In this document: positions 794 to 1,930 of the stretch, one piece after another
Numbering within the stretch: position 1 is the stretch's first letter
Layout: every line of letters starts with the position of its first letter
Sequence record: NC_031047.1
DNA: 64,000 nucleotides
Reading direction: 5' to 3' (one strand)
Source of the DNA: Escherichia phage HY03
The notes under the pieces: model-generated
Databases searched by the model: none
What the model saw: only the letters and a program-made list of their open reading frames with translations
Told to the model about the DNA's origin: nothing
Position numbers and translations under genes: made by a program

Positions 794-865
794 TGGCCCT
801 GGGTGGAATTGAACCACCATCTGGCGATTATGAGTCGCTTGCTTGAACCTTCCAGCTACAGGGCC
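794..865 (-). tRNA. tRNA-Ile/Met (anticodon CAU)
   Basis: Manual cloverleaf fold of reverse complement: acceptor GGCCCTG/CAGGGCC, anticodon loop CTCATAA, T-arm GGTGG-TTCAATT-CCACC; the T4 CAU tRNA at this position is Ile. Confidence 0.75.
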
Positions 866-871
866 TTGATA

Positions 872-944
872 TGCTGATTGACGGAATCGAACCGCCGACG
901 TCCTCATTACAAGTGAGTTGCTCTACCTACTGAGCTAAATCAGC
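872..944 (-). tRNA. tRNA-Thr (anticodon UGU)
   Basis: Manual fold: acceptor GCTGATT/AATCAGC, anticodon loop CTTGTAA, T-loop TTCGATT. Confidence 0.8.
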
Positions 945-951
945 GAAATTA

Positions 952-1038
952 CGGAGGCGATAGGATTTGAACCTATGAGTCGCCGGAGCGACTGCCGGTT
1001 TTCAAGACCGGTGCATTAAACCACTCTGCCACGCCTCC
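952..1038 (-). tRNA. tRNA-Ser (anticodon UGA)
   Basis: Manual fold: acceptor GGAGGCG/CGCCTCC, anticodon stem CCGGT/ACCGG with loop CTTGAAA, long variable arm, T-arm ATAGG-TTCAAAT-CCTAT. Confidence 0.8.
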
Positions 1039-1040
1039 AG

Positions 1041-1114
1041 TCTCCGCGGCAGGATTTGAACCTGCGACATTCTGCTCCCAAAGCAGACGCTCTACCAAAC
1101 TGAGCTACACGGAG
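1041..1114 (-). tRNA. tRNA-Pro (anticodon UGG)
   Basis: Manual fold: anticodon stem TCTGC/GCAGA, loop TTTGGGA, T-arm GCAGG-TTCAAAT-CCTGC. Confidence 0.8.
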
Positions 1115-1126
1115 TAAATTAAATTT

Positions 1127-1198
1127 GAGCGGATAATGAGAATCGAACTCACATCATCAGATTGGAAGTCTGAGGTAATACCATTATACGATATCCGC
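1127..1198 (-). tRNA. tRNA-Gly (anticodon UCC)
   Basis: Manual fold: acceptor GCGGATA/TATCCGC, anticodon stem TCAGA/TCTGA, loop CTTCCAA, T-arm GTGAG-TTCGATT-CTCAT. Confidence 0.8.
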
Positions 1199-1204
1199 AA
1201 ACTT

Positions 1205-1291
1205 TGGTACGAGAAGTGGGACTCGAACCCACAAGGAAATCATTCCGCAGCATTTTAAGTGCTGTGCCTTTACCAATTTGACCATTCTCGC
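1205..1291 (-). tRNA. tRNA-Leu (anticodon UAA), CCA encoded
   Basis: Manual fold: acceptor GCGAGAA/TTCTCGT, anticodon stem CAGCA/TGCTG with loop CTTAAAA, long variable arm, T-arm GTGGG-TTCGAGT-CCCAC, 3' ACCA. Confidence 0.8.
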
Positions 1292-1297
1292 GTTATA

Positions 1298-1930
1298 TTA
1301 TTTATTACGTGAAAAAGACTGTTCTATCAATTCTGGACACTTTCGTTCTATCCATTTTCTAGCTTTTTGTGGGCTTATACCTATTATTTTAGCAGCTTTA
1401 CTAACCCATCCAAATTTAGAATAATCGATTTTAACTAATTCTTCGTAAATTTCATCAGTTAAAATCTTTTCATTAATATTTACCAGTAAATGATATAATT
1501 TGTTATCATTAGCAATTTTAATGAATCTTTTATAGTTTCCGCCTTTACTTAAACCTAATGAAGTAATTGCAGATGATATAGTAGCCGAATTTAATAATGC
1601 GTTTAAAATTTCTTCATCACTAACATTATAACGCTTTTTATTATTTTTAATATTTTTACCAGCAAAAGTATCAGTTTGCGAATGACAGTTTGGACATAAT
1701 AATCTTAAATTTGATTTAAGATGATTTTTGTTATTTCCATCAATATGGTCTAATTGCAGAACAATATGCTTATTTTGCCATTTTGAAATTTTACAAATTG
1801 CACACTCATATGGAAAAATATTTTCTTTTATTATTTTGTCTTTCAGCTTTCCTGTACTAAAATTTGGATGTTTTCCTTCAAAAATTTCAGCTAATTTAGT
1901 ATCCATAATATGATTCCCAATTATTAACAA
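1298..1930 (-). CDS. HNH homing endonuclease
   Basis: 210 aa; HNH motif CAICK...LQLDHIDGNNKNHLKSNLRLLCPNCH; abuts tRNA-Leu where T4 carries tRNA-Gln. Confidence 0.65.
   Translation of the reverse strand: MLIIGNHIMDTKLAEIFEGKHPNFSTGKLKDKIIKENIFPYECAICKISKWQNKHIVLQLDHIDGNNKNHLKSNLRLLCPNCHSQTDTFAGKNIKNNKKRYNVSDEEILNALLNSATISSAITSLGLSKGGNYKRFIKIANDNKLYHLLVNINEKILTDEIYEELVKIDYSKFGWVSKAAKIIGISPQKARKWIERKCPELIEQSFSRNK

Follow-up and report, generated by a model that had tools for sequence, protein, structure and literature searches.

A cassette carrying an HNH endonuclease gene stands in place of tRNA-Gln in the T-even tRNA gene cluster of Escherichia phage HY03

The stretch of DNA analyzed here comprises 64,000 nucleotides (nt) of Escherichia phage HY03 (NC_031047.1; hereafter the window, numbered from its first letter), and the locus examined within it is the T-even tRNA gene cluster of Tequatrovirus (T4-like phage). 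In the window, tRNA-Gln(UUG), the first tRNA gene of the cluster, is replaced slot-for-slot by a cassette that carries an open reading frame (ORF) for an HNH-type protein. This ORF is judged likely, with real room for doubt, to be a free-standing gene for an HNH homing endonuclease; it would have spread through gene conversion and erased tRNA-Gln in doing so, and its product probably cuts in or near the tRNA-Gln gene. Cutting and homing are what we infer from comparison of sequences. The presence of tRNA genes in phages is usually explained by codon usage, and lately they have also been viewed as spare parts against tRNA-cutting host nucleases. A third force on tRNA sets would be a mobile nuclease gene, which is able to remove a tRNA gene even though the phage still needs it. 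In the 37 long ORFs of the window, 69% of the Gln codons are still CAA, which tRNA-Gln(UUG) reads, so the loss of tRNA-Gln was not due to codon disuse.

The region from trna.2 to tRNA-Leu was aligned with that of T4, and 22 loci, 11 with the HNH gene (HNH+) and 11 without it (HNH-), were fetched and compared. In the alignment with T4, identity runs without a break across the intergenic sequence and into tRNA-Gln as far as nt 7, after which a dissimilar block begins, and identity returns 1 nt before tRNA-Leu. The 7 nt that remain of the tRNA gene, TGGGAAT, form a stub at 1913..1919 on the minus strand, which was recognized both in the alignment and in the junction listing. The segment that distinguishes the HNH allele, as delimited by the T4 alignment, anchor distances, and junction listing, is 621 nt long (1292..1912, minus strand) and stands in place of nt 8-73 of tRNA-Gln. 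Allele length was measured as the distance between two anchors, namely the conserved flank through TGGGAAT and the point 1 nt before tRNA-Leu. This distance is 621 nt in the HNH+ loci, except for 630 nt in KarlGJung, and 67 nt in the HNH- loci, made up of tRNA-Gln nt 8-73 and 1 spacer nt (68 nt in one IMG/VR locus). Neither an empty site nor a locus holding both tRNA-Gln and the cassette was present among the 22 loci. An initial annotation of the window, made from the sequence alone, had placed an HNH gene next to tRNA-Leu in the slot of T4 tRNA-Gln, and the alignment with T4 bears this out. Its description of the gene as starting 7 nt from the tRNA has to be corrected: the gene is on the minus strand, and its end near the tRNA is the stop codon (1298-1300), situated 6 nt upstream of the 5' end of tRNA-Leu.

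The junctions, as judged by the anchor and junction comparison, are identical in all 11 fetched HNH+ loci, and some phages keep extra tRNA-Gln bases. The stub is 9 nt long (TGGGAATTA) in slur14 and pSe_SNUABM_01, which have two extra tRNA-Gln bases at the 5' junction, and at the 3' junction the last tRNA-Gln bases, AGC, are kept in CM8, G10400, and phiD1; ancestral junction bases (TA, AGC) remain in this way in some HNH+ phages. Because the junctions fall inside the tRNA gene, the tRNA-Gln allele must, to judge from the sequences, be ancestral and the HNH allele derived. A scenario in which the HNH gene came first and tRNA-Gln was inserted later was ruled out, as insertion of a partial tRNA cannot make a working tRNA. 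The 64-kb window was searched for tRNA genes using ARAGORN and the Rfam tRNA model (gathering score of 29 bits), and no tRNA-Gln was found anywhere in it by either method. In the HNH+ records among the matches listed, a T4 tRNA-Gln probe aligned only over 38 nt of flank and stub; these listed records are therefore without a T4-type tRNA-Gln elsewhere.

The HNH ORF is located between trna.2 and tRNA-Leu (1298..1906, minus strand) and encodes 202 amino acids (aa) plus a stop. Its true start is almost certainly the ATG at 1906, which gives an ORF of 609 nt and is the start annotated in all relatives. The TTG at 1930, with which the mechanically called ORF 1298-1930 begins, was rejected as the start because positions 1907-1930 are flank common to HNH- phages. 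The ORF has its own start and stop, is intergenic, and lies outside any intron or intein. The 202-aa product matched phrog_14736, 'HNH endonuclease', from end to end with an expectation value (E) of 5e-124. In an alignment of 34 homologues, obtained from a search of 5.8 billion proteins, residues C35, C38, W43, H54, G57, N66, L67, C71, P72, N73, C74, H75, and T78 are invariant and D53 is nearly so. The protein is accordingly predicted to have an N-terminal zinc-finger HNH domain, in which a Cys4 zinc site would surround a D-H...N...H catalytic motif (D53-H54, N66, C71-P-N-C74-H75), and its residue pattern is that of the HNH (His-Me finger) endonuclease superfamily. The AlphaFold2 model, with a predicted local distance difference test score (pLDDT) of 90.7, combines a small N-terminal domain of beta-beta-alpha type with a C-terminal half that is helical. 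Sub-threshold helix-turn-helix matches were obtained at the C-terminus with Pfam HTH_29 and P22_Cro (E about 0.01), and the terminal motif aligns with T5 HegA. A sequence search of solved structures with the HNH protein gave no match. In KarlGJung/Bas37 the ORF (L019:3007-3624) encodes 205 aa, as 9 nt (KNI) are duplicated in frame in the linker that follows the HNH domain; this duplication is the only length variant among the 11 HNH+ loci.

Close relatives show presence/absence polymorphism at one fixed site: the cassette was found in 62 GenBank records, once in each and at 98-100% identity, with every match spanning the upstream junction, and the tRNA-Gln allele, itself split into types that are about 91% identical, was found in 448. 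Nine full-length HNH ORFs, taken from different phages, have 16 variable nt sites, and the changes at all 16 are synonymous. Since synonymous changes make up 19% of the possible single changes in this ORF (P about 3e-12 under neutrality), the pattern indicates that purifying selection acts on the HNH protein. Pairwise differences average 0.91% in the cassette, compared in the same phages with 4.0% in trna.2, 6.7% in trna.3, 2.7% in trna.4, 7.6% in ipI, 2.0% in 57B, 2.6% in 57A, and 1.8% in gene 1. The GC content of the cassette is 25.6%, versus 35.6% for the window, and the cassette was found on several flank haplotypes that are also present in HNH- phages. Taken together, the low diversity, foreign GC content, polymorphism, occurrence on several haplotypes, and selection fit a recently spread, foreign, functional element. 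A scan of IMG/VR with trna.2 yielded 7 loci only, none of which was HNH+.

The question of the target was addressed by comparing the HNH+ and HNH- classes, site by site over the 22 loci, in trna.2 with the intergenic region, trna.3, trna.4, 57B, 57A, gene 1, and the tRNA genes from Leu to Ile. No fixed difference between the classes was found in ~2.3 kb of upstream flank genes (over ~2.8 kb) or in ~480 nt downstream, and the top association was far from fixed. The tRNA-Gln body is the only consistent discriminator of HNH+ and HNH- within the aligned flank genes. As no flank site separates the alleles, the target site must overlap tRNA-Gln or the junctions, provided that the enzyme spares its own genome by sequence. 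The following course of events is proposed. During co-infection with a phage that has tRNA-Gln, the HNH enzyme would nick or cut the rival genome in or beside the tRNA-Gln gene, and recombinational repair would then copy the cassette from the HNH+ genome, so that the rival would become HNH+ and lose its tRNA-Gln (intronless homing). The carrier would be immune to the enzyme because the substitution would have destroyed the target.

Expression of the gene can be pictured in terms of the surrounding operon. Upstream of trna.4 (2932-2904) and of ipI (3298-3270), a pattern scan detected early-type sites (TTTACA, 17 nt, TACTAT); between trna.2 and the HNH ORF it detected no promoter-like or terminator-like site. 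Because no such site intervenes, transcription of the HNH ORF probably begins at the early-type promoter-like site at 2932-2904 and takes in trna.4-trna.2 and the tRNAs as well. Cleavage by RNase P at the tRNA-Leu 5' end would release the HNH mRNA 6 nt beyond the stop codon. Translation would start from a weak ribosome-binding site formed by the tRNA-Gln stub, whose GGGAA, 7 nt upstream, provides the only Shine-Dalgarno-like bases before the HNH ATG. Two T4 records were consulted for promoter annotation and contain none.

Several observations weigh against a homing endonuclease that targets tRNA-Gln. The Pfam HNH match of the 202-aa product (E 0.005) is under the gathering score, and a Foldseek search with the whole AlphaFold2 model returned no significant match. 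The contrast in diversity between the cassette and gene 1 is modest (0.9% vs 1.8%). No co-conversion tract or cassette-linked flank haplotype was found in the 22 loci, which means that a classic population signature of homing is absent; a missing tract also fits very short tracts or later recombination. The promoter and ribosome-binding-site assignments are pattern matches and readings of the sequence. In addition, many free-standing phage endonucleases cut hundreds of bases away from their own gene (PMC2988022), and since cutting at a distance is common in such enzymes, the target need not be tRNA-Gln. Finally, in a distant T4-like metagenomic contig (L027, 3911-5010), an intact tRNA-Gln is followed after 14 nt by the start of an HNH homologue with 68% identity; that lineage at least has no need to destroy tRNA-Gln.

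The last two points also bear on an alternative to which we give a low but appreciable probability, in which the HNH gene is mobile and its product cuts elsewhere, either in another tRNA gene through a shared T-loop motif, as SegB does, or in trna.2 or trna.3, and tRNA-Gln is a collateral loss at the original illegitimate insertion. Free-standing T4 endonucleases often cut away from their own gene (PMC2988022), and the L027 homologue lies alongside an intact tRNA-Gln. SegB recognizes a tRNA-gene sequence, a motif that many tRNA genes share, and causes its region to be inherited preferentially; it is also able to cut the DNA of T4 itself (PMC2330249). With no fixed flank difference between the allele classes, however, a target in the flank would be present equally in the genome of the carrier, and tRNA-Leu and tRNA-Gly are 99-100% identical in both classes.

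The absence of a co-conversion signature would likewise suit a gene that is a fixed immobile passenger or has been domesticated (for competitor exclusion, tRNA-region amplification, or counter-defence) and owes its distribution to recombination and descent. Purifying selection shows that the protein has a function, not which one, and SegB has been reported to be adaptive in amplifying anti-defence loci (PMC13096335). We nevertheless regard an immobile gene as quite improbable, given that the cassette keeps 98-100% identity in backgrounds whose neighbour genes differ by 2-8% and sits on several haplotypes, that its GC content is foreign to the genome, that presence and absence are strictly polymorphic at one site, and that its nearest studied relatives are described as homing endonucleases.

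An HNH homing gene that erased tRNA-Gln, the reading preferred here, can be compared with three studied systems. T4 SegB is the free-standing GIY-YIG homing endonuclease of the T4 tRNA cluster, for which cleavage sites and homing were shown experimentally (Brok-Volchanskaya et al. 2008, PMC2330249). Like segB, the HNH gene is a free-standing nuclease ORF of the same tRNA cluster, occupies a slot that holds a tRNA elsewhere, ends with a stop codon a few nt before the next tRNA, and is polymorphic among T-even phages. It differs in being of the HNH rather than the GIY-YIG type and in occupying the Gln slot rather than the slots of Tyr/Asn/His, and its homing is deduced from sequence comparison. 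The closest studied homologue of the protein is T5 HegA, or F-TflIV, an H-N-H site-specific endonuclease of the T5 tRNA gene region (Akulenko et al. 2004, as cited in PMC2330249 and PMC10644984). The two are 35% identical in the HNH core and in the helix-turn-helix at the C-terminus (E 2e-22), and the T5 gene is also situated in a tRNA array, directly after tRNA-Ile2. The alignment with HegA covers 170 positions with 18% gaps and a different N-terminus, HegA has ~55 extra N-terminal aa, and its phage belongs to another family (Demerecviridae) with another gene context; HegA is not known to replace a tRNA gene. The sequence relationship points to a homologue of HegA, not an orthologue. A GenBank note on ACG-C40 reads 'similar to T5 H-N-H endonuclease TflIV'. 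The T4 Mob proteins (MobA-E) are free-standing HNH homing endonucleases encoded in T-even intergenic regions (PMC2988022, PMC2790892), and they are alike in general kind, as they are free-standing, variably present, and thought to nick or cut the allele that lacks them. Unlike the HNH cassette, Mob genes lie between protein-coding genes and replace no gene, and T4 has no Mob gene at this place.

The HNH cassette is thus of a known kind, that of the Seg, Mob, and F-Tfl enzymes, and is already contained in dozens of GenBank genomes as 'HNH endonuclease'. The swap is a fairly ordinary case of the remodelling of phage tRNA arrays by mobile nuclease genes. No published description of the replacement of tRNA-Gln by an HNH gene was found in the searchable literature, which is incomplete. 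If the HNH enzyme does recognize the tRNA-Gln gene, it would be an HNH counterpart to SegB and would help to explain why near-identical T-even phages have differing tRNA sets. Annotators of T4-like phages should bear in mind that an endonuclease swap, and not a failure of assembly or detection, may lie behind a missing tRNA.

Replacement of tRNA genes by ORFs is also found at other slots of the cluster. The fullest Tequatrovirus clusters (slur04 and fPS-65) contain 11 tRNAs, namely Gln, Leu, Gly, Pro, Ser, Thr, Ile(CAU), Tyr, Asn, His, and Arg, and smaller sets come from slot replacement. In CM8 (L014:2178-2786) and HY01 (L023:2388-2996) the tRNA-Pro slot is occupied by a gene for a 202-aa GIY-YIG endonuclease, the first 120 aa of which are 78% identical to SegB; its C-terminal domain differs and gave a NUMOD3 match. 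A degraded 5' piece of tRNA-Pro is left there, and the ORF stop lies ~8 nt before tRNA-Ser. In T2 (L021:2341-2742) and pSe_SNUABM_01 (L017:2127-2609) a small ORF of 133-160 aa fills the slot of tRNA-Thr, and its T2 copy is wrongly annotated as 'tail sheath monomer'. The tRNA-Thr gene keeps its first 13 nt, and the C-terminus of the ORF product resembles that of the GIY-YIG protein of the Pro slot (33% identity, E 1e-14). The ORFs of the Pro and Thr slots stop at a distance of 8-10 nt from the tRNA that follows. Replacement by the HNH gene and replacement by segB are independent of each other. In T6 (L020:2957-3116), tRNA-Ser and tRNA-Pro are absent with no ORF in their place, and tRNA-Thr is followed after 11 nt by tRNA-Gly, so slots are also lost by clean deletion.

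A broader interpretation, which we hold only tentatively and on balance doubt, is that tRNA genes are homing targets and the array is a battleground in which at least four unrelated nuclease genes have each erased one slot by gene conversion: the HNH gene at Gln, the SegB-like GIY-YIG gene at Pro, the small ORF at Thr, and SegB at Tyr/Asn/His. The design common to them would be a 5' tRNA stub that is kept and an ORF that ends just before the next tRNA. Were this true, selfish nucleases, not codon usage, would largely set the tRNA repertoire of these phages and with it the tRNA-based protection from host defences that cut tRNAs, and the HNH enzyme would be a sequence-specific recognizer of the tRNA-Gln gene.

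Distant HNH homologues (58-68% identity) were found in metagenomic T4-like contigs, where they occupy the syntenic region, at the head of or inside larger tRNA arrays. The HNH lineage is thus repeatedly tied to tRNA arrays and does not always destroy tRNA-Gln, as the L027 contig illustrates. In that contig the HNH homologue is followed by ~400 nt of non-coding sequence that opens with a tRNA-Leu-like 5' end (GCGAGACCAAGCTGGTAA); no tRNA was called in this gap, and it gave no match to a group I intron or other Rfam family.

ARAGORN identified seven tRNA genes in the window, all on the minus strand, and the Rfam model recovered the same seven at 57-71 bits and found nothing beyond them, including no intron family. 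They are tRNA-Leu(UAA) (1205..1291; 98.9% identical to T4), tRNA-Gly(UCC) (1127..1198; 100%), tRNA-Pro(UGG) (1040..1114; 84%, with differences in the stems), tRNA-Ser(UGA) (951..1039; 100%), tRNA-Thr(UGU) (872..944; 97%), a tRNA with anticodon CAU (794..865; 76% to T4 tRNA-Ile), and tRNA-Arg(UCU) (7..83), the last gene of the cluster, which has the top Rfam tRNA score of the window (71.2 bits). ARAGORN called the CAU gene Met, and it is the counterpart of T4 tRNA-Ile (lysidine type); its counterparts are annotated as tRNA-Ile2-CAT in NC_054927 and with 'codon recognized: ATA' in KarlGJung. The six minus-strand tRNAs from Leu to CAU had all been located by the initial annotation, with coordinates that both programs confirmed (57-71 bits), and the T4 order that it gave agrees with the annotation of NC_000866, in which the order of transcription is Gln, Leu, Gly, Pro, Ser, Thr, Ile, segB, Arg, rnaD, rnaC. 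Its report that the window has no tRNA-Arg proved wrong, and the total is seven rather than six. It had allowed that tRNA-Gln and tRNA-Arg might turn up nearby, and of these tRNA-Arg did, at 7-83, and tRNA-Gln did not in the 64 kb. The suggestion that endonuclease insertion deleted or displaced tRNA genes holds for tRNA-Gln, the body of which was replaced to leave a 7-nt stub, and fails for tRNA-Arg, which is in its T4 position. A six-tRNA cluster from which an endonuclease insertion removed or displaced both genes is scarcely credible, since tRNA-Gln was indeed replaced but tRNA-Arg(UCU), the best-scoring tRNA of the window, stands at 7-83 in its T4 place, which refutes the idea for Arg. The description of the cluster as reduced applies in a relative sense only: the window contains 7 tRNAs, against 8 in T4 and 11 in the fullest clusters of Tequatrovirus. 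The loss of Tyr/Asn/His reflects a segB arrangement that is also present in T4.

The homologue of segB, a free-standing GIY-YIG homing endonuclease gene, is located between tRNA-Ile(CAU) and tRNA-Arg (87..752, minus strand), where it takes up the slots that hold tRNA-Tyr/Asn/His in fuller clusters. Its product is 95% identical to T4 SegB over 221 aa and matches Pfam GIY-YIG with E 1.2e-5. The tRNA-Arg(UCU) gene begins 3 nt beyond the segB-homologue stop, and its position relative to segB is the same as in T4; despite the T4 position and anticodon, its sequence is unalignable to T4 tRNA-Arg. The T-loop of this tRNA-Arg is GGTTAGAATCC, with A in place of the usual C56, and the same 77-nt type is present in JEP6, PD112, pSe_SNUABM_01, and F1. 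The edge of the window is too near tRNA-Arg to show whether rnaD and rnaC come next. Because identity to T4 is 97-100% for Leu, Gly, Ser, and Thr, 84% for Pro, and 76% for CAU, and Arg is unalignable, the cluster is an allelic mosaic rather than a copy of that of T4, and its slots carry different alleles. In comparison with the T4 cluster, 7 of the 8 tRNAs are alike in order, strand, and spacing, as are the flanks (trna.2-4, ipI, 57B, 57A, and gene 1), whereas the window is without tRNA-Gln, its tRNA-Arg is unrelated in sequence, and its CAU and Pro tRNAs are other alleles. The window does not contain the full eight-tRNA set of T4 and represents a variant of the T4 cluster.

A hairpin of 11 bp with a hypervariable tetraloop was identified by folding in the upstream flank of both alleles (1928..1953, minus strand). 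Across the 22 loci its loop is GUUU, GCUU, GUUA, GCUA, UCCU, or AUUU, and its stem is constant. This sequence pattern may mark an RNA processing site, and the hairpin may be equivalent to the RNase III site reported 5' of T4 tRNA-Gln. A MotA-type middle promoter was considered just upstream of the stub and was dropped, as its supposed -35 element is the hairpin stem and the pattern scan showed no site there.

The first 6 kb of the window encode, on the minus strand, homologues of T4 gene 3, gene 1 (dNMP kinase), 57A, 57B, ipI, trna.4, trna.3, and trna.2, followed by the tRNA cluster. The trna.2 homologue (2017..2304, minus strand; phrog_2023) is the upstream neighbour, as in T4. A Megablast search with positions 1-3300 matched 1045 phage records, nearly all of them Tequatrovirus, the best match being Escherichia phage JEP6 (98.2%), and a 24-kb stretch in the middle of the window has at most 96-97% identity to any record. 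A second HNH-type homing endonuclease ORF (5409-6083, minus strand; 224 aa) is located between gene 3 and gene 2, where T4 has no gene; it matched phrog_655 with E 3e-59 and gave weak matches to Pfam HNH/HNH_5.

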